Shown here piece by piece: positions 2,845-46,960 of a stretch of 64,000 bases of DNA; the first letter of the stretch is position 1; every line of letters begins with the position of its first letter. The translations under genes and the position numbers were made by a program. Below the pieces are notes generated by a model. The model did no database searches. It had not been told where the DNA came from and saw nothing but the letters and a program-made list of their open reading frames with translations. This DNA comes from Verrucomicrobiia bacterium (GTDB taxonomy: Bacteria; Verrucomicrobiota; Verrucomicrobiia; JABWAM01): contig JAQUAF010000004.1 in the NCBI GenBank assembly GCA_028687435.1, positions 66,344-130,343 on the forward strand. Direction: 5' to 3'.

Positions 2845-4209
2845 TTATCGTCTGGTCGTCACCGTCAAAACCGCCTGGGATTGGACGCCGGCCGGAACCT
2901 CGTCGCAGATGAGTTCAAAGGTGTAGGAGCCTTTGCCCAGCCGGGTTGAACAAAGCTCGATCAAATCCATGTCCGGCGTGACATCCACCTTCCATGGAGC
3001 GATATCGGGATGCCCCACCACATTGACCGTCATCCGCATGGATGAACCAGCCTTCTTTGGAAAGTCCAGACGGCTGATCAAACGCACCGCCTTGGGAACA
3101 TGAATGCGCAGGGAATACACGGCGCCGCGCTTGATCATGACCTTTTCGGTCTGGGCGCTGTTGCTGAAAACAAACCAGTCGCACAACCCTTGGAAGGGCA
3201 ATGACCGGTAGCCGGGCGAGGAAGCGATCGATTCGCGCGTGTCCAGCGACAGGCAGTAAAACAGGGCCAGAATCGTCAACACAGGAAGCGTCAAAAACAC
3301 GGCCACAGGCAGCAGTTTGCTCATCAGGCTCGGGGGACGCATCGCATAGGCGATCGCGGGCGAGATGCGGGCGCGAACCTGGGGCACTCGAACCACCCTG
3401 GGCGCCGCCACAACCGCCTTTGCCGCGGCAGCCGCCGCAACCGCCATCGGCGCGGCCTGCTCATCCACAAATTTCAACCTTACCTTCAACCGCCGCCCGC
3501 TCCCTCCCTGCTCCAGCCATGGAACAATATCCACCTGGTTGGACTCGATCTTTGCGCGGATCAACTCGCGATGTTCCTCGGTAAGCGTGGCGTCAGGCCC
3601 CAATCCAAGGGCTTCGCGCACAAAACGGTCAAAAACCTCGTCCGGTATTTCCATCTCGGCGTGGTCGGCGGACTGCGGAGACTCCATGGCTTTGGCATCC
3701 GATTCGCGCGCCTTGGCGCCGAAATAAGCGCTGAGGGTGGAACTCATTCCCATGAGCCGCGTATTGCCCTCCTGAATGCGCCTGGCCAGCAAAGTGGCCA
3801 CATTCAGGCCGAGACGCACCCCGCCCGGACGGGTTTCCATGAACCGCCGCAACGAATCATGCGGAATGGCCCACGCCACAACTTCGTCGTTGGCCATCAC
3901 GTTCGCCGAGGCCATGGCGGCGGTGAGAAAACTCATCTCCCCAAAACACTGCCCCTCCCCAATGGTCGCCAGCACGCATTTCTTTTTCGTCTCGGGATTG
4001 ACTTTCGACACCTCGAAATTGCCTTTGATGATGTAGAAGAAATAATCGATCGCGCCCGCGTCGGCCACCACCAGTTCGCGGTGGTACTCCATGTAAATCC
4101 CCATGGATTCCAGGTCGGCGATCTGGCCGGAATCCAGTCCGTCCAGCACTCCGCTGGGGGTAAGATGACATTGTTTTGAGGACGCTTGTTCATGAGTAAG
4201 GCTGTTCAT
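2845..4209 (-). CDS. Cyclic-nucleotide-binding domain membrane protein, hypothetical
   Basis: 454 aa. N-terminal cNMP-binding motif (IGEGQCFGEMSFL), an Ala-rich linker, a hydrophobic TM segment (LLPVAVFLTLPVLTILALFY) and a C-terminal beta-rich domain of unknown function. Confidence 0.6.
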   Translation of the reverse strand: MNSLTHEQASSKQCHLTPSGVLDGLDSGQIADLESMGIYMEYHRELVVADAGAIDYFFYIIKGNFEVSKVNPETKKKCVLATIGEGQCFGEMSFLTAAMASANVMANDEVVAWAIPHDSLRRFMETRPGGVRLGLNVATLLARRIQEGNTRLMGMSSTLSAYFGAKARESDAKAMESPQSADHAEMEIPDEVFDRFVREALGLGPDATLTEEHRELIRAKIESNQVDIVPWLEQGGSGRRLKVRLKFVDEQAAPMAVAAAAAAKAVVAAPRVVRVPQVRARISPAIAYAMRPPSLMSKLLPVAVFLTLPVLTILALFYCLSLDTRESIASSPGYRSLPFQGLCDWFVFSNSAQTEKVMIKRGAVYSLRIHVPKAVRLISRLDFPKKAGSSMRMTVNVVGHPDIAPWKVDVTPDMDLIELCSTRLGKGSYTFELICDEVPAGVQSQAVLTVTTRR

Positions 4210-4376: not shown

Positions 4377-4447
4377 GGAAGCGGTGCGGGAGCCCCGCCC
4401 TCCATTGTCGATATGATGGAAAAAGGAGGGCGGGGCTCCCGCACCGC
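4377..4447. repeat. Family-A hairpin repeat (REP/MITE-like), complete copy
   Basis: GCGGTGCGGGAGCCCCGCCCTCC ... GGAGGGCGGGGCTCCCGCACCGC: a perfect 23-bp inverted repeat around a 20-nt loop. It sits in the divergent intergenic region between the cNMP-protein gene and the GntR gene. Confidence 0.85.
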
Positions 4448-4540
4448 TTGTTGTGCAGCCTTCGGAATCCAACTGATTCAATTTGACAATTCACTTGGAC
4501 TAGTCTAATATGTGAATGTTTTGTCAATTGGACTATACCA

Positions 4541-5560
4541 ATGAAACCGCTTTTTCCTTTGGATATCAACATCGACAGAAAGGCACTTTCACCGGCCTGG
4601 GAACAAATTGCGGGACGGATCCGGACCATGATTCGCGAGGGTGACCTTCGGCCCGGAGACCGGTTGCCGACGGACCGGGAGTTGGCCGGAAAACTGGACA
4701 TGGCGCGCGGCACCATCCGGCGCGCTTACGAACAATTGCAACGGGAACAGTTGATTGAGATGACCCAGGGACGGGGAAGTTTTGTCCGGCACCCTGTGTC
4801 GTCACGGCATCCGGGCAAGGACGAACAGGCGGATGTTCTGGTGGAAGACATGATATCCAAACTCGAAATGCTGCGGTTTTCACACGAGGAAATCCGTCAA
4901 CTGCTGGAATCAAAGCTCCATGAACGCGAACAAGTGATGAAACGGCTGGAAATCGCGGTGGTGGATTGCAATCCGGAATCCCTGGCGGCATATGGACGGC
5001 AGTTGAATCTTCCCTCCTGCATCCGGCTCAAACATCACCTGCTGGAAGACCTGAAAGGCGCGTCAAAACCTTGCGCGGCGCTGGGGGACGTTGATTTGGT
5101 GATCACGACCGCCACCCACCATCATGATTTGCAACGAATCATCCCGGAATTGGCCGACCGATTATGCCAGGTGGCACTGGCCCCGACGCCCCGGACGATT
5201 GTGGAACTGGCCTCGCTTTCGGCCGGACAGAACGCGGGCGTTTTCTGCCAAAGCCGGAGATTTCAGGAAATCGTCTGCCGCGCCCTGGCCGAACTGCAGG
5301 TGGCCGGCGCCCCCCACCCCGCCTTGCTGTTCGCGGAAGAAAAAAATCTGGCGGATTTTCTGAGGAACAGGAAGTCATTGATTGTTCCACCAGGATTTGA
5401 CCCGGACTTCTCCCCCAAACGCGCCGGCATCATCCGTGATTTCACCGAAAAAGGGGGGCGTTTGATCTGCTTTGATTATCAGGTCGAAAAAGGATCGCTG
5501 CTTCACATCCAGGAACGCATCAACTCGCTTCTCAACGCCAAGATCTCAAATGAAAACTGA
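4541..5560 (+). CDS. GntR family transcriptional regulator with C-terminal effector domain
   Basis: 339 aa. N-terminal winged HTH ([43 protein letters not shown]). Sits directly upstream of the glutamate mutase operon and overlaps the glmS start. Confidence 0.75.
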
Positions 5561-6014
5561 GACTCCAAACGATTCATCAACGCCCCCGCCAACCATTGTC
5601 CTGGGAGTCATTGGAGCGGACTGTCATGCGGTGGGCAATCGCATCCTGGAACGCCTGTTCAAAGACGGCGGATTCAAGGTGGTCAATCTGGGCGTGATGG
5701 TTTCACAGGAGGAATTCATTTCGGCCGCCATTGAAACCGGCGCCCGGGCCATCTTGGTTTCGTCGCTTTACGGTCATGGCGAAATGGATTGCCAGGGGTT
5801 TCGAGAAAAATGCTCCGAAGCGGGTTTGGACGAAATTTTGCTTTATATTGGCGGCAACCTGGTGGTGGGAAAGACGGATTTTTCACTGGTGCGGGAAAAA
5901 TTCCTGAAAATGGGTTTTGACCAGGTTTTCCCTCCAGGCGCCGCGCCCGAGGAGGGAATCGCAGCTTTGAAAGAGGATTTGGCGCGGCGCATCGTCGCAA
6001 AGGCCGGCAACTGA
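5550..6014 (+). CDS. glmS: Glutamate mutase sigma (S) subunit, the B12-binding methylaspartate mutase small subunit
   Basis: MKTETP... [67 protein letters not shown] closely matches Clostridium GlmS/MutS, with the DxHxxG B12 motif. The track ORF 5472.. is an N-terminal over-extension; the ATG at 5550 overlaps the GntR stop (5558-5560). Confidence 0.9.
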
Positions 6015-7398: not shown

Positions 7399-7430
7399 AC
7401 CGAACCGCGCGCAGCAATTTGCTTTGGCCA

Positions 7431-7490
7431 CGCAAGCGGGGCTCATGCACCGCTTTGCCCGGCAAACATTGAAATTCCTGAACATTTGAA
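7431..7490. repeat. Family-A repeat, right-half partial copy plus tail
   Basis: AAGCGGGGCTCATGCACCGC followed by the TTTGCCCGGCAAACATTGAAATTCCTGAACAT tail motif. Located inside the operon between glmL and glmE. Confidence 0.7.
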
Positions 7491-7523
7491 CTGGATTCCC
7501 GCAGTTTCGTATTTTTCGAGAGC

Positions 7524-9020
7524 GTGAAAGGCAACAAAACCCCATCCCAAAACAGCAAGGCAACCGTGGAACTTCAAAATAAAAAAATCCCGCTGAATGA
7601 TTTCCTGACCATGCGTCCGGCGGTTCTGGACGTCTGGCCGGCAGGCAGGGAGGCATCGCGTCTGGAAGAGGCCTTTGCCTATCATCAGAACATTCCCGAA
7701 CGCAAGCGGTTCCACCTGTCCCTGCAAAAAGCGGAAAAAACGCAAACCACCCTGGCCCAACCCCGGGCCGGCGTTTGCCTGGTGGATGAACACATCCGGT
7801 TGCTGAATTATTTGCAAAACGAAGGAGAGGCCGATCTTCTGCCCACCACGATCGACAGTTACACGCGGCAGAACCGTTACGACGAAGCCCAGAAAGGAAT
7901 CGAGGAAAGCCGCAAAAACGGACGGTCGTTGTTGAATGGATTCCCGGCAGTCAATCACGGGGTAAAAGCCTGCCGGGCCATCATCGAAGCCTTGGAAAAA
8001 CCCGTGGAAGTGCGCCACGGAACACCGGACGCCCGCTTGCTCAGCGAAATCACGCTGGCGGGCGGTTTCACCTCGCTGGAGGGAGGCGGAATTTCCTACA
8101 ACATCCCCTACTCCAAAAATGTGCCGCTGGAAAAAAGCATTGCGGATTGGCAATACGTGGATCGTCTCGTCGGATTTTATGCCGAAAACGGGGTGATCAT
8201 CAACCGGGAGCCCTTTGGCCCGTTGACCGGCACCCTGGTGCCTCCCTGCATCTCCAATGCGGTGGCAATCATCGAGGGATTGCTGGCGGCGGAACAGGGA
8301 GTGCGGGATATCACGGTGGGTTATGGCCAATGCGGAAACATCTACCAGGATGCCGCGGCCATTGTCTCGCTGCGGCAGTTGTGCCGGCAGTATCTGGAGC
8401 GTTTTGGATATGGGGACGTCTGCCTTTCAACCGTCTTCCACCAGTGGATGGGCGGGTTTCCCATCGAGGAAGCCAAGGCATTCGCGGTGATCGCCTGGGG
8501 AACCACGGCGGCGGCTTTTTCCCGCTCAACCAAGGTGATCACCAAATCGCCCCACGAAGCAATGGGAATTCCAACCGCGGAAGCCAATGTCAACGGCTTG
8601 CGGGCCACCCGTCAAATCCTGAACATGCTTAAATCGCAACAATCCCTGGATTCGGCGCTCATTGAACGGGAGGCTGGGCTGATCACCCGTGAAACAACGG
8701 CTTTGCTGGAAGGAACTCTTCGTCTTGGGGATGGCGATCTGGCGCAGGGAACGGTGAGAGCCTTCCAAGCCGGAGTGCTGGACATCCCTTTTGCCCCCAG
8801 CCGGGCCGCTCATGGATCGGTGGTGCCGGTGCGCGATCTGCACGGGGCGGTTCGTTTTCTGGATTTTGGCGCACTTCCTTTCGATGAGGAAATCAAGACG
8901 TTTCACCGGGAAGTGATCGCCGAACGGGCCAAAACCGAACGGCGGGCCGTGTCCTTCCAAATGGTGACGGACGATATCTATGCCGTCAGCAAAGGCCGGC
9001 TGGTGGGGGCGCCCAAGTGA
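7524..9020 (+). CDS. glmE: Glutamate mutase epsilon (E) subunit, the methylaspartate mutase large subunit
   Basis: 498 aa, GTG start. N-terminal region ([26 protein letters not shown]) and length match GlmE/MutE. Confidence 0.9.
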
Positions 9021-9044
9021 TACACAATGCACGACGCCAAACTT

Positions 9045-9138
9045 GGCAAGGCGGTGCGGGAGCCCCGCCCTCCGTCATTTTCCAATAAATGGAGGGCGGG
9101 GCTCCCGCACCGCTTTTTCCGACAACCTTCAATTTTTC
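9045..9138. repeat. Family-A hairpin repeat, complete copy plus tail
   Basis: GGCAAGGCGGTGCGGGAGCCCCGCCCTCC..GGAGGGCGGGGCTCCCGCACCGCTTTTTCCGACAACCTTCAATTTTTCC, between glmE and mal. ORF 9027.. falsely starts in it. Confidence 0.85.
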
Positions 9139-9164
9139 CAACCACTCAAACGGAGCCACCAACC

Positions 9165-10466
9165 ATGTTGCACATAACAGACATCATTTGTTCGGCCGGC
9201 AAAACCGGGTTTTATTTCGACGATCAAAAGGCCATCAAAACCGGCGTCCCCCACGACGGTTTCTTTTGTGGAGGCAAACCGCTCACGTCCGGTTTTCATT
9301 CCGTCCGGCAGGCGGGAGAAAGCATTTCAGTGATGCTTTTGCTGGAAGACGGGCAGGTGGCTTATGGCGATTGCGCGGCAGTCCAGTATTCCGGCGCCGG
9401 CGGACGCGATCCGGTCTTCCTGGCCAATGAATTCATCCCCTTGATCCTGAAAAAAGCGGCGCCTTTGCTGAAAAACCGGCCATTGAAGGAATTCCGTCCC
9501 CTGGCGGCGGAAGCGGACTCCTTGGAAAACAAAGGGCGGCAAATTCACACGGCCATCCGCTATGGTCTCACACAGGCCATTCTCGACGCTGTTGCCAAAG
9601 CCACCCGCCGGCTACCTTGCGAGGTGATCGCCGATGAATATGGCACGTCTTTGGCCAATAAACCGATCCGGATTTTTACCCAGTCGGGAGATGACCGGTA
9701 TGTCAATGCGGACAAGATGATCATCAAGCAGGCCGATGTCCTGCCGCATGGCCTGATCAACCATGTTCCTGACAAACTCGGCCGCAAAGGGGAAAAACTG
9801 CCGGCCTATGTGAAATGGCTCCGAAAACGCATCCTGGCCAAACGGGCGGACGCGCGATATCAACCCGATTTACATTTGGATGTTTACGGAACCATCGGCC
9901 AGCTTTGCGGAAACGACACGGAGAAAATGGGCCGTTATCTGGCCCGCCTGGGAAAAGCCGCGTTTCCTCTAAAACTTCGGATCGAGGGGCCCATGGACAT
10001 GGGGGAACAAATCGCCCAGTGCGAAGCGCTGGCCGCCCTGCGAAAATTTTTGCGCCAGAACAAAATCCACGTGGGAATTGTGGCCGACGAATGGTGCAAC
10101 ACGCTCGAAGACACACGCCTGTTTGCCGATCGAAAAGCGGGGGACATGATCCAGATCAAAACTCCGGACCTTGGAGGGATTCAGAACAGCATCGAGGCGG
10201 TTCTCTACTGCAAACAAAAGGGTGTGGGGGCTTATCTGGGAGGAACATGCAACGAAACCGACCGCTCCGCGCAAATGTGCGTTCACATTGCGCTGGCCAC
10301 CCAGCCGGACCAGATGTTGTCCAAACCCGGCATGGGGGTGGATGAAGGTTACATGATTGTTTACAATGAAATGCGCCGGACCCTGGCCCTGCTGGCCGCA
10401 AAAAAACGCAAATTTAAGTCCCGGCTGAACCGGGCCTGTCCGACGCTGGAAAAAAAACCTGTCTGA
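9165..10466 (+). CDS. mal: 3-Methylaspartate ammonia-lyase (beta-methylaspartase)
   Basis: MLHITDIICSAGKTGFYFDDQKAIK...ESISVMLLLEDGQVAYGDCAAVQYSGAGGRDP...KTPDLGG...GGTCNETDRSA is near-collinear with C. tetanomorphum MAL. The in-frame ATG at 9165 is the true start; 9027-9164 is repeat sequence. Confidence 0.9.
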   Translation: MLHITDIICSAGKTGFYFDDQKAIKTGVPHDGFFCGGKPLTSGFHSVRQAGESISVMLLLEDGQVAYGDCAAVQYSGAGGRDPVFLANEFIPLILKKAAPLLKNRPLKEFRPLAAEADSLENKGRQIHTAIRYGLTQAILDAVAKATRRLPCEVIADEYGTSLANKPIRIFTQSGDDRYVNADKMIIKQADVLPHGLINHVPDKLGRKGEKLPAYVKWLRKRILAKRADARYQPDLHLDVYGTIGQLCGNDTEKMGRYLARLGKAAFPLKLRIEGPMDMGEQIAQCEALAALRKFLRQNKIHVGIVADEWCNTLEDTRLFADRKAGDMIQIKTPDLGGIQNSIEAVLYCKQKGVGAYLGGTCNETDRSAQMCVHIALATQPDQMLSKPGMGVDEGYMIVYNEMRRTLALLAAKKRKFKSRLNRACPTLEKKPV

Positions 10467-10488: not shown

Positions 10489-11865
10489 ATGAAAACATCG
10501 AACTCCCCAAAAATGGATGAAATCCGGATTCTCTCTCCCACAGCCATTCTTGGCTACGGTTTCCCCAGGGAATCTTTTCTGCGGGGCATGAAGGCATCGC
10601 CCCACGTGATCGCCGTGGACGCCGGCAGTTCCGACCCGGGACCGTTCTACCTTGGACATGGCAAATCATTCGTGGACCGGAATGCCGTCAAACGGGACTT
10701 GGAAATCATGATCACCCAGGGGAAAAAACACGGCATCCCCGTGATCATCGGCACGGCGGGGGGAAGCGGCGCCAAAGTCCATGTGGACTGGTGCATGGAA
10801 ATCATCCGGGAGATTGTCCGCGCCCACCGGCTGCGGCTGCGAACAGCCCTGGTTTATTCCGATGTCGAAAAGAAAACAGTCATCCAAAACCTGCAAAAGA
10901 AAAAAATCCGCCCCCTTCCCTTTGCGCCATCCCTGACGCCCAAGATCGTCCGAAACACCACTCGCGTGGTGGCCCAAATCGGAGTCGATCCCTTGATCAA
11001 GGCGCTGTCCAAACCGGTCGATCTGGTGGTGGCGGGCCGCTGCTACGATCCGGCGGTCTTTGCGGCCTTGCCGGTGAAGGAAGGATTCGATCTGGGACTG
11101 GCGCTGCATTTGGGAAAAATCCTCGAGTGCGCCGCCATCGCCGCCTCCCCAGGAAGCGGACGGGATTGCGTGCTGGGCATCCTGAAAAAAAATTCGTTCA
11201 TCCTGCAAACCCTCAGCCCCAACCGCCGTTTCACGGTGAATTCAGTGGCGGCGCATACCCTGTACGAAAAATCCCACCCCTTTATTTTGCCGGGACCTGG
11301 CGGACATCTGGATCTTTCCCAATGCCGTTTCCGGCAAAAAACTCCGAACTCCGTGGAGGTTTCCGGAAGCCAATTCGTGCCGGACACCCCTTGCACCGTC
11401 AAGATCGAGGGCGCGGTTTGCGTGGGATACCGGACGATATCCATCTGTGGCATTCGCGACCGCATCATGATCCGGCAGTTGGACGACATTTTTGCGGCGG
11501 TGCGGGAGGCGGTGAAAAACAATTTCGGCGTCCGGGACTACCGGTTGAATTTCCGGGTTTACGGACGGGACGGAGTCATGGGGCCGCTGGAACCGGCGCC
11601 TCAAGAAATCGGGCATGAAGCGGGAGTGATCATCGATGTGGTGGCGGCCACGCAGGAGGAAGCCAACACCATTTGCGGTTTCACCCGCAGCACGGCCCTC
11701 CACTATGGCTATCCGGGCCGGATTGCCACGGCAGGCAACCTGGCCTTTCCATTCAGCCCCTCCGACACCCCCATGGGCGCCGTGTATGAATTCAGCATCT
11801 ACCATTTGATGGACATTGCCGGCCCCTCAAACCTGTTTCCGGTAAAATCAATGATTTTGAATTAA
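10489..11865 (+). CDS. AtuA-like (DUF1446) family protein, function unknown
   Basis: 458 aa. Architecture and motifs (IPVIIGTAGGSG; VVAGRCYDPAVFAALP; ILECAAIAASPGSG) resemble the acyclic-terpene-utilisation AtuA family. Followed by a DUF4387 gene, as is typical for AtuA-like genes. Confidence 0.5.
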   Translation: MKTSNSPKMDEIRILSPTAILGYGFPRESFLRGMKASPHVIAVDAGSSDPGPFYLGHGKSFVDRNAVKRDLEIMITQGKKHGIPVIIGTAGGSGAKVHVDWCMEIIREIVRAHRLRLRTALVYSDVEKKTVIQNLQKKKIRPLPFAPSLTPKIVRNTTRVVAQIGVDPLIKALSKPVDLVVAGRCYDPAVFAALPVKEGFDLGLALHLGKILECAAIAASPGSGRDCVLGILKKNSFILQTLSPNRRFTVNSVAAHTLYEKSHPFILPGPGGHLDLSQCRFRQKTPNSVEVSGSQFVPDTPCTVKIEGAVCVGYRTISICGIRDRIMIRQLDDIFAAVREAVKNNFGVRDYRLNFRVYGRDGVMGPLEPAPQEIGHEAGVIIDVVAATQEEANTICGFTRSTALHYGYPGRIATAGNLAFPFSPSDTPMGAVYEFSIYHLMDIAGPSNLFPVKSMILN

Positions 11866-12020
11866 GCCGGGCCGGAGCGCGGCAGCTTGACACCCGATGC
11901 TCGATGCTCGACGCAGAAACGATCACTCAAAGGCGGGATACGACCGCCCGGAGCCGTTCCGCCTTCGTCTCTCATCGGACTACGGCGGGACAGGCCGGGA
12001 GGTTCACCACGTTTCACGTG
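11866..12020. repeat. Long composite repeat module (shared with 62077..62240)
   Basis: AATTAAGCCGGGCC..; ACGATCACTCAAAGGCGGGATACGACCGCCCGGAGCCGTTCCGCCTTCGTCTCTCATCGGACTACGGCGGGACAGGCCGGGAGG recurs at about 95% identity at 62160-62240. Confidence 0.75.
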
Positions 12021-12104
12021 GCCGGCCCTCCATCTTTTTACGCCAAATGGAGGGCGGGGCTCCCGCACCGCCTTTTTCGCCAAACTTTGAAATTCCTTAA
12101 CATT
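12021..12104. repeat. Family-A repeat (left arm partial) plus tail
   Basis: GGCCGGCCCTCC..AAATGGAGGGCGGGGCTCCCGCACCGCCTTTTTCGCCAAACTTTGAAATTCCTTAACAT. Confidence 0.8.
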
Positions 12105-12127
12105 AAATTAACCCCTGATAAAAAAAC

Positions 12128-12448
12128 ATGAAAAAAACCCGATTGATGGATCTGGCCCATATCATCCGGAGCAAAAATTCCGGCCCTTACGAACTGACCC
12201 TGGATGTCTTTTTCAAAACGGAGAAGATTTACCAAACAGTCAAAAAAAGGAACCTGATCAACAAGACGCTGATCAAGCGGCTTTACCGGGTGGAGGAAAA
12301 TCGCATCCTAGACATCATCTATTTCGATCCCGTGAGGGCGGTCAAGGCCACCATCGCCCGCCCCATCCCCTCGGGAGCGGTGGAGGACACGGATGTTTAC
12401 GGGGCGCAACAACACATGCCGCTGGTGGACGCCATCATCAATTTTTGA
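12128..12448 (+). CDS. DUF4387-like small protein
   Basis: 106 aa. IRSKNSGPYELTLDVFF...VYGAQQHMPLVD matches the DUF4387 pattern that normally accompanies AtuA-like genes. Confidence 0.55.
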   Translation: MKKTRLMDLAHIIRSKNSGPYELTLDVFFKTEKIYQTVKKRNLINKTLIKRLYRVEENRILDIIYFDPVRAVKATIARPIPSGAVEDTDVYGAQQHMPLVDAIINF

Positions 12449-12564
12449 AGCAGGTTTTCAGGCATTTAGACTGTCAGGCCCGGACAATTTGTTGTCGTGA
12501 AATTTTGAATTAGCGCCTGACAACCTGATAGTCTAACAGCCTAACAGTCTAAACACCTAATTTT

Positions 12565-13533
12565 ATGACAAAAGATGTCAGACATGACAATTTGCGATTT
12601 GCCGCCTACTACGCGCCCAGGGGACGCGACCGTCTGCAATGGCTGGGCGAAAGCATCGCCCAACGCTATCTCTCGGCCCGCGACCAGTTGATCGGGATCA
12701 TGGGCGAAAGCGGCACAGGCAAATCCTCCATCATTCGCGGCATGTTTCCGGGACTTGAGTTGACCAATGACGACGAGGGGGTGAATGTCCGCCCCCTTCC
12801 CCTGATCCGCATGCACCGGGAGGAACATTTCACGGCGCATACCCTGCATATTGATATTCGGTTTGAGATGGCGTTTACACAGCCGGGTGAAATGGCCGAA
12901 GCCATCCGCGCGGCGCTCAAGCAGGGCAAACGGGTGGTGGTGGAACATTTCGAGGAAATCCATCCCCTGTTGAAAATCAACGCCCAGTTTCTCATGGGAG
13001 CCGGGGAGGATATCCTTGTTGTGCGCCCCAATCTTTTCGGCCCCTTTCCGGAAGACATCGGCAAAGTGATCAACCACACGGCCATTTTCCGCAAAATGGC
13101 CCATTCGGCGGAAGACATCGTCACCATGATTTTGGAAAAGGAATACGGCATTTCAAAACCCGAAAGACATGGCGATGTGCCGCGGGGATTTGTCCTGCAG
13201 TTCGCCAAGAAACCCTCATGCCTGGACCTTGGCCGCCTTGAGGAACGGGTCAAAGCCATCATTCAACAAGGGGTGGACATCAGTTATCTGGATGAGGGAC
13301 ACATCATGATCGGCAAGGAAGCCTACGCCTGCACCGGTCCCCGGATCCATGTCCGCAATTCCTCGGAAATCCGCAATTTCCGTCTGATGAAGGAACTGGC
13401 CTACGATGAAATGACCGACAGCCATTGCCTGGTTGGGCTGGTGGCCGAACCCCGCGCCCTCCACTTCATCGACCGCCACCCCGACATCGTGCCGGCCAGC
13501 GTGAAAGACCTCGTGGCCAACAGCACGTATTGA
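12565..13533 (+). CDS. P-loop protein, HPr-kinase C-terminal-domain-like (hypothetical kinase)
   Basis: 322 aa. Walker A GESGTGKSS followed by a TNDDEG segment, analogous to HprK GxSGxGKSE...ADD. Confidence 0.45.
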   Translation: MTKDVRHDNLRFAAYYAPRGRDRLQWLGESIAQRYLSARDQLIGIMGESGTGKSSIIRGMFPGLELTNDDEGVNVRPLPLIRMHREEHFTAHTLHIDIRFEMAFTQPGEMAEAIRAALKQGKRVVVEHFEEIHPLLKINAQFLMGAGEDILVVRPNLFGPFPEDIGKVINHTAIFRKMAHSAEDIVTMILEKEYGISKPERHGDVPRGFVLQFAKKPSCLDLGRLEERVKAIIQQGVDISYLDEGHIMIGKEAYACTGPRIHVRNSSEIRNFRLMKELAYDEMTDSHCLVGLVAEPRALHFIDRHPDIVPASVKDLVANSTY

Positions 13534-20467: not shown

Positions 20468-20494
20468 GCCGCGCCAGGCGCGGCAACTTGAATA

Positions 20495-20636
20495 GCCACA
20501 AAAGGCACAAGCATCGTCAACAGGACAACGTTGACGATGTCACAAAATATGTTTTATCAAATGTCAACCATCCATTCTGAAATTAAATCTTGTGAAAGCG
20601 GCAATCGCGATTGCCGCTGCTTGTGCCTTTTGTGGC
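20495..20636. repeat. 142-bp highly structured element: 18-bp perfect outer stem enclosing two internal hairpins
   Basis: GCCACAAAAGGCACAAGC (20495-20512) pairs perfectly with GCTTGTGCCTTTTGTGGC (20619-20636). Inner hairpins: ATCGTCAAC-AGGACAAC-GTTGACGAT and GCGGCAATCG/CGATTGCCGC. Lies between the convergent URO-D and tsaB genes. Confidence 0.7.
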
Positions 20637-20681
20637 CATTCAATCGTGCCGATGATACTGAAACTTTGAATTTCCCAAACA

Positions 20682-21344
20682 TCAAGCTGAACTTCGCCCG
20701 GGCACGGCCACGCGGACATAATGGGGACCGAGACTGGAAAGCGCGGGCGCGCGGGAAAAATCCTGACGGCAGGCCAGCGCGCCGGTGGCTGATGCTGTGG
20801 GGAAAAGGCACAACCAAGGCGTCCCGGCCAAAAACGGAAAATCTTCAACCTTCAGTTCGTAACTGATCACCGCCGCAAAAGACCGTCCGAAAATTTGTTC
20901 CAATCCGGAGGGAGGCGCAACACGGGTTTCCGCCTGCCTCAGCGCACCTCCCCGCAATTCGACCTTGGCGCCAAAGATTTCCTCCCGCCGGGCATCGTTG
21001 AGCGCCAGAAAATCACCATCGGAAAGCTTGAGTTGACTGGCGGCCTGCGCGGCAAGGGCAAGCGGCGTCGGAATCTCGCACACCGGCATCTCATCCGCGC
21101 AAAGCAACCCCTTCAAGAATGCATAGCCAACCCGGAGGCCATTGTACGATCCGGGACCCTGGCCGATGACACAAAAATCGACGTCCTCCAACCGGACGCC
21201 AAGCCGCCGGTAAAGCGGCTCGATCAGGCGGGAAGCGTTGCCGCTTTCGGACACTTCGCGCAAGACAGTCTCCCCCTCGCCCAAGGCGAGACTCAATTGG
21301 GACGAAGAACTTTCAATGGCAAACCAACGGCGGGAGGTTTTCAT
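20682..21344 (-). CDS. tsaB: tRNA threonylcarbamoyladenosine biosynthesis protein TsaB
   Basis: 220 aa, YeaZ-like (LSLALGEGETVL...CVIGQGPGSYNGLRVGYAFLKGL). Confidence 0.85.
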   Translation of the reverse strand: MKTSRRWFAIESSSSQLSLALGEGETVLREVSESGNASRLIEPLYRRLGVRLEDVDFCVIGQGPGSYNGLRVGYAFLKGLLCADEMPVCEIPTPLALAAQAASQLKLSDGDFLALNDARREEIFGAKVELRGGALRQAETRVAPPSGLEQIFGRSFAAVISYELKVEDFPFLAGTPWLCLFPTASATGALACRQDFSRAPALSSLGPHYVRVAVPGRSSA

Positions 21345-25279: not shown

Positions 25280-25334
25280 GCCCACGCCCCCGGCCATGAA
25301 CAAGAAAAAAGCCGCGCCGGAGCGCGACGGCTCG

Positions 25335-25440
25335 ACGCCCAATGCTCGATCCGCCTTCGCTCTGCGAACTTGCGCCTTCGCCAAAGCTTCGGCGTCACAA
25401 GCTGGCGAGACAAGCGCCGAAGCAAAAAACCGGCAAGGCG
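25335..25440. repeat. Family-B module (variant)
   Basis: CTCGATCCGCCTTCGC..CTTCGGCG..GAGACAAGCGCC, related to 624-676, 40262-40320 and 62102-62160. Confidence 0.6.
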
Positions 25441-25451
25441 GTGCGGGAGCC

Positions 25452-25553
25452 CCGCCCTCCATTCATTTCGCGACAAATGGAGGGCGGGGCTCCCGCACCG
25501 CCTTTTTCGCCAAATATTGAAATTTCTGAACATGAACCAAGACAATTTTCTCA
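25452..25553. repeat. Family-A hairpin repeat, complete copy plus tail
   Basis: CAAGGCGGTGCGGGAGCCCCGCCCTCC..GGAGGGCGGGGCTCCCGCACCGCCTTTTTCGCCAAATATTGAAATTTCTGAACAT. Confidence 0.85.
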
Positions 25554-25641
25554 AAAAATTTGCAAAAATTCGTTTATCCCCTATATTATGGCAAACGTTT
25601 GCCGCCCACAACCACACTTCTTCAATCATAAAAAAGGCCTC

Positions 25642-27306
25642 ATGAAAAATCCTTTTGCCAGGTCACGCTGCCAAAATTTCATGCATCCGAAGAAAAACGG
25701 CTTTTTCATCCTTTTCCTCATCGGCTGGCTCTCTCTCTTTCTCGGGGTTTTTACAATCTTGAGCCCTGCCGCACCGTCCAAAAATCAACCGGCCAACCCC
25801 GGCTCTGAAAAGGTGAAGGTTGCCCAGTTGGAGGGATGGAAATCTCCACCCTACTGGTCATCCATTCTGCGCCCCGTCAACGAAAAAGGCGACACCCGCA
25901 GCGACTTGTTCCACGCCAGACTGACCTCGTCACTTCCCTCTCAAAAAGAGGGCATATGGCGGGGTGTCGTGTGTCCGGCCATCAGTCCCAAGGACTTTTT
26001 AGGCCATCGTTTCCGCTTTACGGTCCAAGCCAAAGGCAAAGGCGAATTATCCCTGGGATGCGCCGAACATGTGACCAAAGACAAATCCGGCACACCCGAC
26101 ATTCGTCTGAACTGGCAAAAGAATCCCATTGCGCTGACAGAGGACTGGCAGGAGGTTGCATTTGAATTCCAAGTCATGGATCCACAACTCACAAAGCTCC
26201 ATGTCATGTCCGAGGTGCGTGGCAACAATGCCGAAGCCTGCTTCGACAAGGCTTCCCTCGCAACGGTGAGCCCGACGGAAGTCAGCATGACGGCCACGCC
26301 CGCGCATACCATGACAACACCGGATGAAAAAGTCGCCATCCGTGTTGCCGTGTCCAAGGGAGGCCAACCCGCGGCGGGCGTGAACATCAGGACTCTCATC
26401 CATTTGGAAGCTGGAACCTCAAGCAGGACGGAACCGGAAGGTTGGACAAACATCCAAACCAATCCTTCAGGCATCGCGGAAATTGTCTGCGATTGGCCGG
26501 CTCAAACAACATCTGCGGTTTACCGCATCGTGATCGCCCAACCGGATTCGGGCCTGGCTTGCACGACATATGTCGAACTTGCCGACAAGGCAACCTGTGA
26601 AACGTTTGCGGCAGCGGCCCAAAAGGCCAAGCTCTTGCCTCAACCAGCCCATCTGCTGTTCATTGGAGACAGCCTGACCGATTTTCAACGCGGATACAAT
26701 TACGTGGATGAACTGCAAACATGGTTGAGAACATCAGGCAAAAAGGTTTCGACTCACAACGCGGGTGTTGGCGGCGATTTCACCTCCCGCGTCTGGCAAA
26801 GAATGAACAAGGATCCCAAGTCATACCGGCCTGAGATGTATGACCATCTGTTCGATCCCAAACCCAGCCATGTCTTTTTCTGCCTTGGCCACAACGACAG
26901 CAAAGTCAGCAGCGCTTCGAACTATGCGCAGCCTCTTGTGCCTCTTGGAACCTTCGGAAACATCTACCGCCAAGCCATCCGGAAGATTCAACAGGAAACC
27001 GGAGCCAGGGTGACGGTGATTTCGACCACTTCGTCCCTGTTCGAGACATGCAAGGCCAACGCCGACAAAGCCCGGGCGGCAGGCAGGGAACACATGCTCT
27101 TCGGAAAACCGGACATGCTGGAAAAGTTCAACGCCATCGCCCAAAAAGCGGCGAAAGAAACGGGGGCGGACTATGTGAACATCTACGAGCCTTTCCGCGC
27201 TTATCCCGGCAAGCCAAGCCTCTTCAATCCGAATGACGGCGTGCACCTGTCCAACGCGGGAAATCGTCTTATCGCCCTGGAGTTGCTCAAATATTTGGGA
27301 CGGTAA
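25642..27306 (+). CDS. Secreted SGNH/GDSL-type hydrolase with N-terminal carbohydrate-binding-like domain
   Basis: Signal/TM segment (FFILFLIGWLSLFLGVFTIL). C-terminal SGNH motifs (LLFIGDSLTD; GVGGD; DGVHLS). True start at ATG 25642; the track start 25342 lies in a repeat. Confidence 0.65.
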   Translation: MKNPFARSRCQNFMHPKKNGFFILFLIGWLSLFLGVFTILSPAAPSKNQPANPGSEKVKVAQLEGWKSPPYWSSILRPVNEKGDTRSDLFHARLTSSLPSQKEGIWRGVVCPAISPKDFLGHRFRFTVQAKGKGELSLGCAEHVTKDKSGTPDIRLNWQKNPIALTEDWQEVAFEFQVMDPQLTKLHVMSEVRGNNAEACFDKASLATVSPTEVSMTATPAHTMTTPDEKVAIRVAVSKGGQPAAGVNIRTLIHLEAGTSSRTEPEGWTNIQTNPSGIAEIVCDWPAQTTSAVYRIVIAQPDSGLACTTYVELADKATCETFAAAAQKAKLLPQPAHLLFIGDSLTDFQRGYNYVDELQTWLRTSGKKVSTHNAGVGGDFTSRVWQRMNKDPKSYRPEMYDHLFDPKPSHVFFCLGHNDSKVSSASNYAQPLVPLGTFGNIYRQAIRKIQQETGARVTVISTTSSLFETCKANADKARAAGREHMLFGKPDMLEKFNAIAQKAAKETGADYVNIYEPFRAYPGKPSLFNPNDGVHLSNAGNRLIALELLKYLGR

Positions 27307-37751: not shown

Positions 37752-37777
37752 GCGATGCACGACGCCCGCAAACCCCT

Positions 37778-37880
37778 GGCAAGGCGGTGCGGGAGCCCCG
37801 CCCTCCACTTGTCGGAAAATGATGGAGGGCGGGGCTCCCGCACCGCTTTCCCACAAATATTGAAGTTCCTTAACACTGAA
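37778..37880. repeat. Family-A hairpin repeat, complete copy plus tail
   Basis: GGCAAGGCGGTGCGGGAGCCCCGCCCTCC..GGAGGGCGGGGCTCCCGCACCGCTTTCCCACAAATATTGAAGTTCCTTAACACTGAA. Confidence 0.85.
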
Positions 37881-40236: not shown

Positions 40237-40244
40237 ATTAAATT

Positions 40245-40320
40245 AGGCCGGGCCCAAGGCCCGGCAACTGCTCGATCCGCCTTCGCCCAAGCGCTTCGGC
40301 GAGACAAGCGCTCGACGCAC
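40245..40320. repeat. Stop-codon-proximal GC hairpin (GGCCGGGCC-CAA-GGCCCGGC) plus family-B module
   Basis: AATTAGGCCGGGCCCAAGGCCCGGCAACTGCTCGATCCGCCTTCGCCCAAGCGCTTCGGCGAGACAAGCGCTCGACGCA, nearly identical to 62085-62160 and 624-676. Confidence 0.8.
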
Positions 40321-40564: not shown

Positions 40565-43500
40565 ATGAAAAACGATACCCCTTTCAAGGCAAGCCGTTAT
40601 GCGCGGCTCTTGTGGAACGAATGGATGATGCAGCCGGACGATGACTGCTACAATATCGGCTTTGTCTATGAAATCACAGGGAAACTGGATGTGGAGCGTC
40701 TGAAAACCGCCCTGCAATGCTATATCAACCGGAACCCGCAGATCCGTTCCTCTTTCAGTGAAAAACAGGAAACCCTGTATCAAACCTTCCAAAGCCAAAT
40801 CAAGGATCCCATCGTTTGCCAGGATTGCTCGGGCCAAGGACAAGAGGAACTCGACGGTCTGATCCAAAAGCTCTGCGGGCAAAGCTTTGATCTCTCCCAT
40901 GCGCCGCTGTTTAAGTTTTCCATCCTTAAAGCCGATGACCACCGGCACTACTTGGCGTTGCGTTTTCACCACATCATCGTTGACGGGACCTCACTCGAAA
41001 AAATCCCCCTGTCGATTGCCGCATTGTATAACGCCACCGATCCATTGCTCCCCGGAGAAGTCGTCGGCGAACCGCCCCAACTGGGCGCTTATTTGGAATA
41101 TGAAGAGGCGCTTTTTAAGAAGTCATCCCTGCCGGAAGCTCTGGATTATTGGGAACAATTGCTTGGCGGCCGGAGCTTGTATGTCAATTTGTCGAAAAAA
41201 GAAAGCGCCCCCAAGAATCCTGATTTTTCAGTCAAAATCTTCAATTTCGATTTGGACCAGAAACTGACGAATCTGATTTCCAATTTGGCCCGGGAAAATT
41301 CCGCCACGGTTTTCCATGTCATGGCGGCGCTCTGGAGCGTTTTCCTGAAAAAATATTCCGGCCAGGAAAGCATTGCCTTTGTTTATCCTGTCGGAATGCG
41401 CCCCGGAAACATGATGGACATGGACGGTTATGCCGTGAACTCGCTGCCGATGGTCACGGATTATCGCGAAAATACGACATTCGTTTCTTTGGTCGGCCAA
41501 ATCAAGGAACAGCGGAAACTCGCCAAACGCCATCAATTCGCCCCTTTTGACGAGATCGTCAACCGATATAATAAAACGGCGCCTTCCAAATACGGCCAAC
41601 AATACAATAACTATCTGAACGCGGTCATCAGCCAATCCAACGAGTTGCTGGACTCGCCGATGGACTTGAAAGGGGTGCAGGTCAAAGCCATCCCCTCCTC
41701 AACCCTGTTCCATGCGGAAATGGGATTGATCTATCGCAAAGAACCTCAGACCCTTCATTGCCAGATCTGTTACAACCAGGCTTTGTTTGAAGATTTTGTT
41801 TACGCGTCGGCAGAAAAGGATTTTACGCGTTTGGCGGAAAGGTTGCTGGCCGATCCCCATCAAGAGGTTGACGCGGTGTCCCTTCTTGCCGAGGGCGACC
41901 GGCAACAAATCCTTTGCGACTGGAACAAAACAGACGTTCCCTTTTCCAAGGAAAAAACCATTTCCGCGCTTTTTGAAGAGCAGGTGGAACAAACACCGGA
42001 CAACCTTGCCGTGGTCTATGAAGGAAAAAGCCTGAGCTACCGGGCTCTCAATCAACAGGCCAATCAACTGGCCCATGCCATTCGGGGGAAATACCGGGAA
42101 TTCCATGGGAAAGAGATCCAAGGCGATACGCTGATCGGGTTTTATATGGAACGCGGCATGGAAATGATTGCCGGCATCCTGGCGATCCTGAAGGCCGGGG
42201 GCGCCTACGTGCCATTTGATCTCGCCGATCCTGAAGAAAGGTTGAAATTCAAGCTTGACGACAGCAATTGCAAAATGATCGTTGCCAGCGCGGAAACCCT
42301 TGAAAAATTGCAGCCGCTGACCGGCGCAAAAATTCCAACGATCAGCATCGACGCCGAGGCGCGCGAAATAGAAAAAAGACCGGCCTCCAACCCGGCGCCG
42401 GTGAATCATTCCAGAAACCTGGCCTGCCTGATCTATACGTCGGGATCGACCGGCCGCCCCAAAGGCGTGATGACCGAGCACTGCGGCGTGGTGAACTTCA
42501 TCGACTATCACCGGAAGAACTTCGTCCCCCTCAAAAAGCATCATCATGTCCTGCAAAGCATTTCCCTGAGTTTCGACGCCTCATGGACCGAATTGGCCCT
42601 CGGGCTTTTTACCGGCTCAACTCTGCATATCGTCAAGTCGATGGCGGAAATGACCGAAAAGCGGATGCTCCAATTTCTCAAGGACCATGAAATCAATGTT
42701 TTCATCTCGACTCCCGCGATGGTGGAAAACCTGTCCAAAAAAGACAGCGCCAGCCTGGAGATCATCATTTGCGGGGGCGAGGTCTGCGAGAAATCAATCA
42801 TGGATGACTGGAGCGACCGGGTCAAATTTTACAACGCCTACGGCCCGACGGAAGCAACGATCTGCGCCACCTATTCCGCGCATCGCCGGAGCAAATCCAA
42901 CCGGAATATCGGAAAGCCGTTGCAGAACAAAAAAGCTTATATCCTTGATGCCAGGCTTAACCCGGTTCCCAAGGGGCTGTGGGGTGAGTTGTATATCGGG
43001 GGAGAAGGCCTGGCCAGGGGCTATTGGAATCGGCCGGAATTGACCCGGGAACGGTTCATGGATGATCCCTTCGCCCCTGCCGCGGGATCGAAAATGTATA
43101 AAACGGGTGACATGGTCCGCTGGCTGGAAGATGGCAGCATCGAGTTTCAGGAAAGAAACGACGACCAGATCAAGATCAACGGCTTCCGGGTGGAACTGGG
43201 TGAAATTGAAAACAAGCTTGCGCAATGCCCCGCCCTCTCCCGCAATGTCGTGGTCTGCAGGGAACGGGCGGGAAGAAAATATCTGGCCGCCTATTATACA
43301 ACCCGCGACAAAATTGAACCCGACGCCTTGAAAAAGCACCTTGCCGGTTTGCTGCCGAATTACATGGTGCCGGGTTGTTTCCTCGAACTGCCCAGGCTTC
43401 CCCTGACTCCCAACGGCAAAATCGACAAAAAAGCGCTTCCCGATCCCCATTTCGAACCAGCCAAGGAAACCTATGCGCCGCCGGAAAACGCAATCCAACG

Positions 43501-46500: not shown

Positions 46501-46960
46501 CTGTCTCTGCGCCTACTATTCAGTGTCTAAAAAAGTTTTGCCGGAAGAACTGAAAAAACATCTTTCCGCTGCGTTGCCGGATTACATGATCCCTTCGCAT
46601 TGGATGGAGTTGCCAAGCCTCCCGTTGACCGTTTCGGGAAAAATCGACCGGCACGCACTGCCGGTCCCCGAGTTAAAAACGGTTGATGCCCCATGCATCC
46701 CACCCCGCAACGAACTGGAAGCGCGGCTCTGCGAATTGTGGCGGCAGATTCTGGGGCTGGAACGCCTCGGCATTCACGATGACTTTTTCAATTTGGGCGG
46801 CAATTCGATTGCCGCCATCAAACTGGTCAACAAGATGACCGGCCTTTTGGGCGCGGAGATCTCCATCGCCGAGCTCTACCAAAAACGAACCATCGCAAAT
46901 TTTAATTTTGCCGAACAACCGGCCCAAAATAAAATCGAAGGCGAAGAAATCGAACTATGA
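40565..46960 (+). CDS. Non-ribosomal peptide synthetase, two modules (C(starter)-A-T-C-A-T)
   Basis: 2131 aa. C motifs HHIIVDGTS and HHSITDGWS. A-domain cores LIYTSGSTGRPKGV and VIYTSGSTGQPKGV, plus NGK and YKTGD motifs. T domains FFANGGDSIA and FFNLGGNSIA. The stop overlaps the next NRPS start (ATGA). Confidence 0.92.
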   Translation: MKNDTPFKASRYARLLWNEWMMQPDDDCYNIGFVYEITGKLDVERLKTALQCYINRNPQIRSSFSEKQETLYQTFQSQIKDPIVCQDCSGQGQEELDGLIQKLCGQSFDLSHAPLFKFSILKADDHRHYLALRFHHIIVDGTSLEKIPLSIAALYNATDPLLPGEVVGEPPQLGAYLEYEEALFKKSSLPEALDYWEQLLGGRSLYVNLSKKESAPKNPDFSVKIFNFDLDQKLTNLISNLARENSATVFHVMAALWSVFLKKYSGQESIAFVYPVGMRPGNMMDMDGYAVNSLPMVTDYRENTTFVSLVGQIKEQRKLAKRHQFAPFDEIVNRYNKTAPSKYGQQYNNYLNAVISQSNELLDSPMDLKGVQVKAIPSSTLFHAEMGLIYRKEPQTLHCQICYNQALFEDFVYASAEKDFTRLAERLLADPHQEVDAVSLLAEGDRQQILCDWNKTDVPFSKEKTISALFEEQVEQTPDNLAVVYEGKSLSYRALNQQANQLAHAIRGKYREFHGKEIQGDTLIGFYMERGMEMIAGILAILKAGGAYVPFDLADPEERLKFKLDDSNCKMIVASAETLEKLQPLTGAKIPTISIDAEAREIEKRPASNPAPVNHSRNLACLIYTSGSTGRPKGVMTEHCGVVNFIDYHRKNFVPLKKHHHVLQSISLSFDASWTELALGLFTGSTLHIVKSMAEMTEKRMLQFLKDHEINVFISTPAMVENLSKKDSASLEIIICGGEVCEKSIMDDWSDRVKFYNAYGPTEATICATYSAHRRSKSNRNIGKPLQNKKAYILDARLNPVPKGLWGELYIGGEGLARGYWNRPELTRERFMDDPFAPAAGSKMYKTGDMVRWLEDGSIEFQERNDDQIKINGFRVELGEIENKLAQCPALSRNVVVCRERAGRKYLAAYYTTRDKIEPDALKKHLAGLLPNYMVPGCFLELPRLPLTPNGKIDKKALPDPHFEPAKETYAPPENAIQRQLCQTMKEVLGLDKIGIRDDFFANGGDSIACLRLSAKCRDKGHALSPRDIFEKRTAENLSRLIQENKGKGAAPDDQEDFSQTCRDFLPAGLLAEIHRRYAVEEILPANSLQQGFLYHLLSHPGDDAYHIQMLADYRQGIDVTKYEQAWKYAVKKYPPMRTCFNWKEEIVQIICRDIDFKLNFSDVSNHENKEAAIDEIRHADRKKGFDLAQPGLFRIYLVKQGESHYTLLKSEHHSITDGWSNSLQLNYVHAVYKQLLKNQSPPNEPDEAYCAAQKHLFVNQDKAQAYWNDRIKKAAPAHDIRPLFSANQNPDAMKKIREPREYSLRIDGAPYDLIKKAGLKAGATLNVLIQFAWHKLLSLYGGNSPTVAGTVVSGRALPIKGIENSVGLYVNTLPLIVDWREKTVQEQLNQIHSAMMEMDEHSSMNIGQLHRGGHRLFHSLFVFENYPLPEEETPGPEALEFTLRKAAGKLDFPLCLAVFEKDHSLLLQLNYDGACLFPEDARKLMSQMELIINEIPDKLGVSHHAISALSPLDYEKTIHLWNKTALDYGRDQTIAEAFEAQAMKTPGQTALVFGGEKLTYRQLNQQANQIAAALKKDYLQNFGEAIKPGALVGLYLDRSVQMIAAILGILKAGAAYVPFDRADPAGRLQYKIEDCACKMMLTSSACAADLAFLPPGRPARWEIDRHTTEIAAQPDSNPNRINRATDLAYVIYTSGSTGQPKGVMLEHYGVINLAASHRQSFNIGEQSTILQFAPVSFDASVSTLFTTLLNGGTLCLCPEETRKDTQKLGELIVQNRVTLIDIPARLLEVFPRDLDLSHLRCIITAGEVCDQKTMDYWSGKVRLINAYGPTEGAVCATFSIHAKGKSNKNIGKPIGNKKVYVLNSDLTPLPVGAPGELYLGGDGLARGYLNRPEITRERFMANPFLKEGGPTLREARIYKTGDLVRWLDNGELEFLGRNDDQVKIHGYRIELGEIEQRLLSYPGISGGAAKIQDWKGAPCLCAYYSVSKKVLPEELKKHLSAALPDYMIPSHWMELPSLPLTVSGKIDRHALPVPELKTVDAPCIPPRNELEARLCELWRQILGLERLGIHDDFFNLGGNSIAAIKLVNKMTGLLGAEISIAELYQKRTIANFNFAEQPAQNKIEGEEIEL
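45128..46440. repeat. 1313-bp near-identical direct repeat (copy 1) covering the adenylation domain of NRPS1 module 2
   Basis: Identical to 51646..52958 at a constant offset of 6518 nt with 2 mismatches. The antisense ORF translations in the track are identical between the copies. Confidence 0.9.

Follow-up and report, generated by a model that had tools for sequence, protein, structure and literature searches.

Copies of a palindromic repeat occupy three junctions of a glutamate mutase operon whose genes, in most of the relatives examined, are closely spaced or translationally coupled. We consider it rather probable that these elements belong to a lineage-specific, REPIN/MITE-like mosaic of dispersed repeats and are not an operon-specific control device. 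Non-coding palindromic repeats of this kind, forming BIME-like mosaics with other modules, would have colonized intergenic spacers across this uncultured Verrucomicrobiae genome. Any effect at the RNA level, which we infer for one full copy, would probably be a by-product of insertion rather than the work of a purpose-built regulator. The analysis covered a stretch of 64 kb, called the window below, and the family was defined by repeat finding, alignment and an nhmmer profile. The repetition is real and far beyond chance. The 24-nt arm of the repeat, GGCGGTGCGGGAGCCCCGCCCTCC, had 11 matches in the window (both strands, up to 3 mismatches allowed), whereas 100 shuffles gave 0, and the 22-nt tail, AAACWTTGAAATTCCTKAACAT, had 6 matches, all on the plus strand, against 0 expected from shuffles. 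These counts bear out the proposal, made in a first-pass annotation of this DNA, that one repeat family fills the spacers on both sides of glmE.

Pfam searches of the ORFs gave the operon order gntR-glmS-glmL-glmE-mal-atuA-DUF4387-X. The gene for a GntR-family regulator (4541-5560, plus strand) is followed by the B12-binding GlmS, inside ORF 5472-6014, and by glmL, for a MutL-type glutamate mutase accessory protein (PF13941; 6025-7398, plus strand). Next come glmE, for the methylaspartate mutase E chain (PF06368; 7566-9020, plus strand), and mal, for methylaspartate ammonia-lyase (9165-10466, plus strand; 433 aa from ATG 9165, with a GGAG ribosome-binding site 11 nt upstream). An AtuA-like protein (10489-11865), DUF4387 (12128-12448) and a 322-aa protein, the last operon gene X (12565-13533), complete the series. 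The domains found (B12-binding, PF13941, PF06368, ammonia-lyase) agree with the names glmS, glmL, glmE and mal given earlier. The order glmS-glmL-glmE-mal-atuA-DUF4387-(about 315 aa) is also found in the closest related contigs, and the operon therefore runs beyond the part considered in the first-pass annotation. The best relatives of GlmE are 68-73% identical and are encoded by Planctomycetota, Kiritimatiellia and Brocadiia MAGs; the only identical proteins came from short contigs that the Logan collection has for sequencing run SRR22315507. The window also encodes a DUF1559/N-methyl protein, and such proteins are typical of PVC-group bacteria.

The sizes of the spacers depend on where glmE starts. 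Its Pfam match lies within 7524-9020; a length of 484 aa prevails among the top GlmE homologues, and four of these align starting at the residue that GTG 7566 specifies, a start that would give the window protein 484 aa as well. GTG 7566 is thus, from these alignments, most likely the start codon, and the glmL-glmE spacer is therefore 7399-7565, or 167 nt, instead of the 125 nt first reported, while the 144 nt given for the glmE-mal spacer (9021-9164) holds. These are not the only two sizeable gaps of the operon, as had been stated: the atuA-DUF4387 spacer (11866-12127) measures 262 nt and houses a third, composite copy, and another 116 nt precede the last gene.

The canonical unit of the family consists of a left flank (...CGACGC...GGCA), two arms of 25-29 nt separated by a variable loop of 12-21 nt, a short T run and the 22-nt tail. 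Each arm carries a 13-nt mini-palindrome, GCGGGGCTCCCGC, and it is conceivable from this arrangement that the hairpin arose as a doublet. At least 10 copies, ranging from perfect to decayed, are present in the window, all but one lying wholly in spacers between genes; the exception is a degenerate copy, 57033-57113, which reaches into ORF 56640-57068 at its listed start. The modules combine freely. Flank, hairpin and tail occur together on the plus strand at 9027-9146, 25414-25536 and 37755-37879, each recovered by repeat finding, nhmmer and folding. The second of these (29-bp perfect stem, TTTTT run and tail) has on one side a minus-strand gene with its start near 25265 and on the other a GDSL-lipase gene that starts at 25643. 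The third comes right after the stop of a GH123-like gene (ending at 37751), with another 36 nt to the next gene (37912). The hairpin occurs alone at 4379-4449 (plus strand; 25-bp perfect stem, no T run, no tail), between a divergent gene for a cNMP-binding-domain protein (2845-4209, minus strand) and gntR (4541, plus strand), just upstream of a promoter-like site, TTGACA-17-TAATAT, at 4483-4511. The right arm and tail occur without a left arm at 7421-7488.

In three further plus-strand copies (668-795, 11906-12106 and 62229-62327) the left arm is split by other repeat modules. The insert in 668-795 is 37 nt long. The copy at 11906-12106, which is the one in the atuA-DUF4387 spacer and was found by repeat finding, nhmmer and folding, contains a 97-nt module common to 62146-62242, followed by a shortened hairpin (12022-12074) with an intact right arm (12049-12071), a TTTTT run and a tail (12082-12103). 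The copy at 62229-62327 is of the same composite type and is located between an oxidoreductase gene (ending at 62018) and an enolase-superfamily gene (about 62385). Two degenerate members were recognized by nhmmer, namely the older-looking one on the plus strand at 57033-57113 (E 6e-7) and one on the minus strand at 63784-63869 (E 3e-8), just after the stop of a gene ending at 63773. Folded as RNA, each of the four simple copies gives a hairpin of 25-29 perfect pairs, with energies of -64 to -69 kcal/mol and z of -9.6 to -11.3. The folds of the interrupted copies are branched (z -7.1, -4.8 and -2.95): at 668-795 a 21-bp outer stem surrounds a three-way junction (z -7.1), and 11906-12106 has a branched fold too (z -4.8).

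No convergent spacer holds a copy (0/6, by our own reading of the ORF map), and two copies, at 4379-4449 and 25414-25536, lie between divergently transcribed genes. The presence of copies in divergent promoter regions means that the family is specific neither to 3' ends nor to this operon. All tailed copies in the window share one orientation, on the plus strand. Since GC skew is negative along the entire plus strand of the window, a transcription-linked and a replication-linked orientation bias cannot be told apart here. Taken with this distribution, the decayed copies present, at the level of sequence, the pattern expected of a proliferating dispersed repeat. Target-site duplications were not seen by eye at the flanks of copies 4379, 9048, 25435 and 37777, and the mobility of the elements is therefore deduced from their distribution only. 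Neither a transposase nor a RAYT nor a parent IS was present among the 39 window ORFs scanned.

Between copies, the right arm shows 98% identity, against 71% for the loops and 63-70% for the 36 nt after the arm. This difference between constant arms and drifting loops and tails suggests recognition by a protein or homogenization between copies. The constraint on arm sequence exceeds what an RNA stem would need, and recognition or homogenization fits it better than does a purely neutral element. The element could accordingly be supposed to act as DNA, its arms being recognition sites for a transposase or RAYT-like enzyme, a nucleoid or uptake factor or a topoisomerase, and the RNA hairpin being incidental. 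Conservation beyond pairing, the uniform orientation on one strand and the copies in divergent regions that do not look transcribed all point this way. Yet no candidate protein is known, decayed copies exist, and the copy at 668-795 carries a compensated G>A / C>T change across its two arms, which fits selection for pairing or repair within the element. On balance we find such a role improbable. The loops at 37807-37823 and 4404-4424 seem inverted with respect to the others, the loop of the copy at 37755-37879 resembling the reverse complement of other loops; because loops are themselves partly palindromic (0.78 vs 0.67 identity), a loop "flip-flop" is only suggestive.

No Rfam family corresponds to the repeat at gathering or E-value thresholds, with 0 matches at the gathering score in the whole window; below threshold, miRNA-precursor hairpin models scored best (35-42 bits, thresholds 57-100), and a weak match to Plastid-psbJ-1 (32 bits vs a gathering score of 62) reflects generic long-hairpin similarity and not membership. 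Plastid 3'-UTR inverted repeats are determinants of 3'-end processing and stability. In metagenomes, the arm was found in two contigs only, as isolated motifs in another arrangement, without hairpin or tail. The three-frame peptide query of a copy had a single match in 5.8 billion proteins, from an NCBI Verrucomicrobiae MAG. This protein is the exact plus-strand translation of window 25296-25520 and, by that correspondence, a mis-called ORF over the repeat copy at 25414. Judged from these comparisons, the family is lineage-specific, without an Rfam match, and of the well-known dispersed-palindrome kind.

The best-preserved copy within the operon fills most of the glmE-mal spacer. It was delineated by repeat finding, alignment, folding and nhmmer at 9027-9146 (plus strand), starting 6 nt after the glmE stop codon and ending about 18 nt before the mal ATG. 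It comprises a left flank (ATGCACGACGCC...GGCA, 9027-9047), a stem of 28 perfect pairs (9048-9075/9089-9116) enclosing a 13-nt loop (9076-9088), a T run (9114-9118) and a degenerate tail (about 9124-9146). The hairpin at 9048-9116 folds at -65.6 kcal/mol (z -10.2) and the entire spacer at -71.3 kcal/mol (z -8.9). The first-pass annotation had placed a full copy at 9045-9138, and this was confirmed. The gene order around it is conserved in 6 related contigs; the copy is thus internal to a conserved gene order, not at the end of a transcription unit, and would be co-transcribed with the operon as an RNA hairpin with a perfect, GC-rich stem of 28 bp and UUUUU after it. The GC-rich stem runs into TTTTTCC, 3 of the 5 U pair at the stem base, and stem and loop are both far larger than in usual terminators. 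Inspection by eye found no promoter-like -35/-10 in 9117-9164, before mal, and a promoter scan listed none in the spacer. With no promoter seen ahead of mal, read-through is needed, which rules out a strong terminator.

The full copy is probably a leaky terminator, a barrier to decay at the 3' end or a site for a double-strand-specific RNase such as RNase III, and its most likely effect would be to uncouple mal and the downstream genes from glmE. The idea that a stable hairpin within the operon acts as a 3' exonuclease barrier or partial terminator is physically plausible for 9048-9116; it fails for the other element to which it had been applied, 7431-7490, which has neither a left arm nor significant structure. 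RNase III requires roughly two helical turns, and a perfect duplex of 28 bp, being longer, is also a substrate of the RNase III type. For this reason the sign of any effect on expression cannot be predicted. The duplex might even serve mainly as an RNase III-type cut site between glmE and mal, as Correia elements do in Neisseria. The segments on either side would then change in stability, possibly becoming less stable, and the upstream one would not be shielded. We regard this as a possibility worth keeping, though one with the odds against it: the 28 uninterrupted pairs would suit such a role, but it does not need the U run after the stem. Correia elements bind RNase III, which either cleaves or protects them (PMC2649163).

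The element in the glmL-glmE spacer is of a different nature. It extends over 7421-7488 (plus strand; nhmmer E 1e-14) and matches positions 43-97 of the model only. Its parts are a GCTTTGGCCACGCA module, a right-arm remnant AGCGGGGCTCATGCACCGC at 7436-7453, TTTGCCCGGC and the tail AAACATTGAAATTCCTGAACAT at 7464-7485; the left arm is missing. The earlier description of 7431-7490 as a half copy was correct, in that right arm and tail are both present there, and its description as a stable hairpin was not. No significant fold was found for the spacer 7399-7565 (z +0.78 vs shuffles) or for 7421-7490 (z -0.63 vs shuffles). As a truncated remnant made of the right arm and tail, it cannot form the hairpin. 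We conclude from the predicted folds that it is probably inert, with no hairpin-type effect on the RNA. Lacking left arm and fold, it leaves the proposed scheme, in which hairpins would set the stoichiometry of the S/L, E and MAL segments of the mRNA, without a structural basis at the first junction.

We considered the possibility that the half copy has been kept for its tail rather than for its hairpin. Hairpin, T run and 22-nt tail could form a portable terminator-plus-promoter (insulator) cassette in which the tail, AAACWTTGAAATTCCTKAACAT, drives the downstream gene, with the half copy serving as a promoter for glmE. Conservation of the tail, its constant plus-strand orientation and its location 25-80 nt upstream of the plus-strand starts 7566, 12128 and 37912 speak for this, as does the half copy, which has kept a perfect tail though its hairpin is lost. 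Moreover, Correia elements are known to create promoters (PMC2649163). Several observations weigh against a promoter, however. There is no conserved -10 at 16-18 nt after TTGAAA. The promoter-like sites at other places in the window have canonical form (TTGACA-17-TAATAT and, as judged by eye, TTGCAA-16-TATATT). The latter site belongs to the GDSL-lipase gene at 25643, so that the tail at 25512 precedes a separate canonical promoter. The tail at 9124-9146, ahead of mal, is degenerate. Finally, tail-like motifs without a hairpin occur at 20661 and 59216, neither of them ahead of a plus-strand gene, which makes the tail an unlikely promoter. Such a cassette therefore seems very doubtful to us. 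Inspection of the tail by eye as a sigma-70 promoter, with TTGAAA as -35 or TAACAT as -10, gave no consistent partner hexamer. The motif at 20661 comes after a long inverted repeat of another type and directly adjoins a gene on the minus strand at its stop codon; the one at 59216 has minus-strand genes on both sides.

Comparison with related operons indicated how the junctions had come to be expanded. In relatives with 68-73% GlmE identity, the glmL-glmE gap is about 14-65 nt and the glmE-mal junction ranges from an ATGA overlap to 52 nt, against 167 and 144 nt, respectively, in the window. The two gaps amount to 14 and 2 nt, respectively, in a Planctomycetota MAG (L003/L004), and to 31 nt and a 4-nt ATGA overlap in L005/L006; junction gaps are 13-65 nt in L011-L013. 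The C-terminus of the window GlmE (…GRLVGAPK*) and the N-terminus of the lyase (MLHITDIICSAG…) both match those of the relatives, with 144 extra nt in between. Short or overlapping junctions in most of the relatives examined imply that the elements of the window are derived insertions. Could they be an artefact of assembly? In the Logan assembly of SRR22315507, the half copy is reproduced internally, and contig termini fall within the hairpins at 4379 and 9048; the adjacency of glmE and mal matches the synteny of all relatives. From these contigs, which come from a run possibly not independent of the MAG, and from synteny, we conclude that the elements are real. The candidate that they are integron attC-like sites, that is, co-oriented palindromes after genes, was rejected, because relatives have the conserved gene order and lack the elements, because a GTTRRRY core is missing and because the arms match perfectly.

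One relative departs from the compact arrangement. In a Kiritimatiellia MAG (L007/L008), spacers of about 420 nt are found at exactly the glmL-glmE and glmE-mal junctions, and a structured repeat family that occurs throughout that genome, and has no relation to ours, fills them. This parallel, like the uniform orientation of the tailed copies, runs counter to the view of a neutral dispersed repeat, as either could reflect selection. It would be in line with the initial proposal that both elements have been kept for a regulatory role, their hairpins blocking 3' exonucleases or partly terminating transcription and so setting different mRNA abundances of glmS/L, glmE and mal. The great stability of the 9048-9116 hairpin with its run of five U, the break in the window of an ancestral glmE-mal translational coupling, and the precedent of a REP at the malE-malF junction of E. 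coli agree with that proposal, which we nevertheless hold to be unlikely. The copy at 7421-7488 has no hairpin, the family is genome-wide and also present in divergent promoter regions, and most of the related operons examined work without a spacer. Furthermore, given the number of expanded junctions, we roughly estimate at about 1 in 6 the chance that the same two would coincide in two lineages. A more elaborate version holds that hairpin, U run and 22-nt tail form a sequence-specifically recognized, orientation-fixed cassette, recruited to split an ancestrally translationally coupled operon into separately tuned segments, the Kiritimatiellia parallel then reflecting selection for uncoupling GlmE both from GlmS/GlmL and from the ammonia-lyase. 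We rate its chances as slim. The occurrence of at least 10 copies in 64 kb, including two in divergent regions, and of relatives devoid of spacers supports colonization by a dispersed repeat rather than a dedicated regulatory design.

Several known families resemble the present repeats in part. Work on the E. coli mal operon has reportedly assigned roles to the REP at malE-malF. REPs are palindromes of 20-40 bp tagged by GTAG or CGTC, found mostly downstream of coding regions and often as inverted dimers, for which roles in mRNA stabilization, termination and supercoiling have been proposed (PMC3733652). Like REP/BIME/REPIN elements of Proteobacteria, the present repeats are high-copy extragenic palindromes, often just downstream of genes and inside operons, that form mosaics with other short motifs, and inverted doublets give long hairpins. 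They differ from REPs in that the unit is about 70 nt with perfect arms of 25-29 bp, not an imperfect palindrome of 20-40 nt, and that no GTAG or CGTC tag adjoins the stem, the flanks being GGCAAG and TTTTT or TTTCC. The tetranucleotide GACG is present 20-25 nt upstream of the stem in three copies, not adjacent to it. Unlike REPINs, they are accompanied by no RAYT among the 39 window ORFs and have an extra, oriented 22-nt tail.

Resemblance to MITEs lies in the inverted repeats of 28 nt that serve as arms, in units of 70-200 nt, and in the fact that the only annotated ORF across a copy is a translation of the repeat; the difference is that the four copies inspected by eye (4379, 9048, 25435 and 37777) have no target-site duplications. 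Other dispersed, non-autonomous structured repeats include ERIC/IRU, RUP, BOX, bcr1 and RPE, whose effect on operon mRNA depends on position and orientation. The present elements differ from ERIC/IRU and other MITE-like repeats, having unrelated sequences, a shorter length and arms far more uniform than their other parts. The Correia elements of Neisseria (CREE/NEMIS) are, likewise, small non-coding inverted-repeat elements scattered in intergenic regions. They are co-transcribed with neighbouring genes as hairpins that RNase III can cleave or that protect the transcript, and they can alter the expression of adjacent genes (PMC2649163). With a size of about 100-155 bp, 26-bp inverted repeats, a TA duplication, an IHF site and promoter-forming ends, they differ from our repeats in length, ends and phylum; in the latter, the arms are only 12-21 nt apart, and neither a TA duplication nor an IHF site nor an end-generated promoter was recognized. 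As an analogy, Correia elements would be the closest functional match for a long perfect duplex in mRNA, which implies no membership.

As they stand, these findings extend to a new lineage the known phenomenon of REP- and MITE-type hairpins in operons, and open no new question. They have a practical side, since such repeats break short-read assemblies and yield spurious "hypothetical proteins". Should attenuation or processing of the transcript by the full copy prove true, the PVC bacteria, which have been little studied, would offer a clear natural case in which a dispersed repeat has rewired expression inside a conserved catabolic operon.

A third copy of the hairpin family lies within the conserved operon, in the spacer between atuA and DUF4387 (window 11866-12127). 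In three contigs of relatives that carry this operon (L003, from a Planctomycetota MAG, L005 and L012), atuA and DUF4387 share a 4-nt overlap. This copy is composite, and its 97-nt module was found again at 62146-62242. Structured inserts of about 420 nt were also observed at the two glutamate mutase junctions, glmL-glmE and glmE-mal, of a Kiritimatiellia MAG (L007, 7577-8000 and 9456-9870; also present in L008). They are made of a different genome-wide repeat set, comprising GCCAAGAACGCCAAG and ATCCGTGTTCATCCGTG motifs, and have a 141-nt core in common. In L007/L008, the GAACTTTTGAA motif is located about 20-30 nt upstream of the mal start and also overlaps the called glmS start.

The window contains further repeats. 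A second dispersed family (…GCTCGATCCGCCTTCGCCCAAGCGCTTCGGCGAGACAAGCGC…) occurs at 593-674, 40238-40319 and 62074-62155, and in reverse orientation at 60618-60693. In many cases it is placed directly upstream of the hairpin family, and its repeats are preceded by a small GC hairpin directly 3' of stop codons. A 30-nt inverted repeat (60403-60432 / 60755-60784; 97% complementary, arms 322 nt apart), lying inside or adjoining the minus-strand ORF 59760-60764, may represent a further small inverted-repeat element. Tail-like motifs lacking the family hairpin were found on the plus strand at 20661-20682 (AAACTTTGAATTTCCCAAACAT) and 59216-59237 (AAACTTTGAATTCCCCAGACAT). The former adjoins the stop codon of a tsaB-like gene on the minus strand and has upstream of it a different long inverted repeat with 33-nt arms (20488-20520 / 20611-20643). 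Separately, 40565-56550 holds a pair of large ORFs, of 2131 and 3197 aa, for non-ribosomal peptide synthetases with module repeats of about 3.2 kb; two of the repeated segments, 45128-45427 and 51646-51945, are 100% identical across 300 nt. The Pfam scan of these ORFs covered the first one only.

The repeats also affect gene calling and assembly. PHV34_02975, annotated by NCBI as a hypothetical protein of 74 aa (window 25296-25520), is no more than repeat modules read as codons, and the call is therefore very likely spurious. The long ORFs 9027-10466, 25342-27306 and 563-904 are likewise extended into repeats or composed of them. Two short-read Logan contigs of run SRR22315507 covering the glutamate mutase locus (L001 and L002) end or start exactly within the perfect hairpins 4379-4449 and 9048-9116, which shows that the hairpin family breaks up assemblies.

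The last operon gene (start, 12565) is preceded by a 116-nt spacer (12449-12564), in which we found an inverted repeat, TTTAGACTGTCAGGC / GCCTAACAGTCTAAA, as well as TTGAAT-18-TAGTCT. Across the whole window, the octamer TAGTCTAA has just two occurrences, one in this spacer and one at 4501-4508, where it covers the -10 region of the promoter-like site of gntR (within 4483-4515). Judging from these motifs, the two octamer sites may mark a GntR operator common to both regions, and the spacer may in addition hold an internal promoter.
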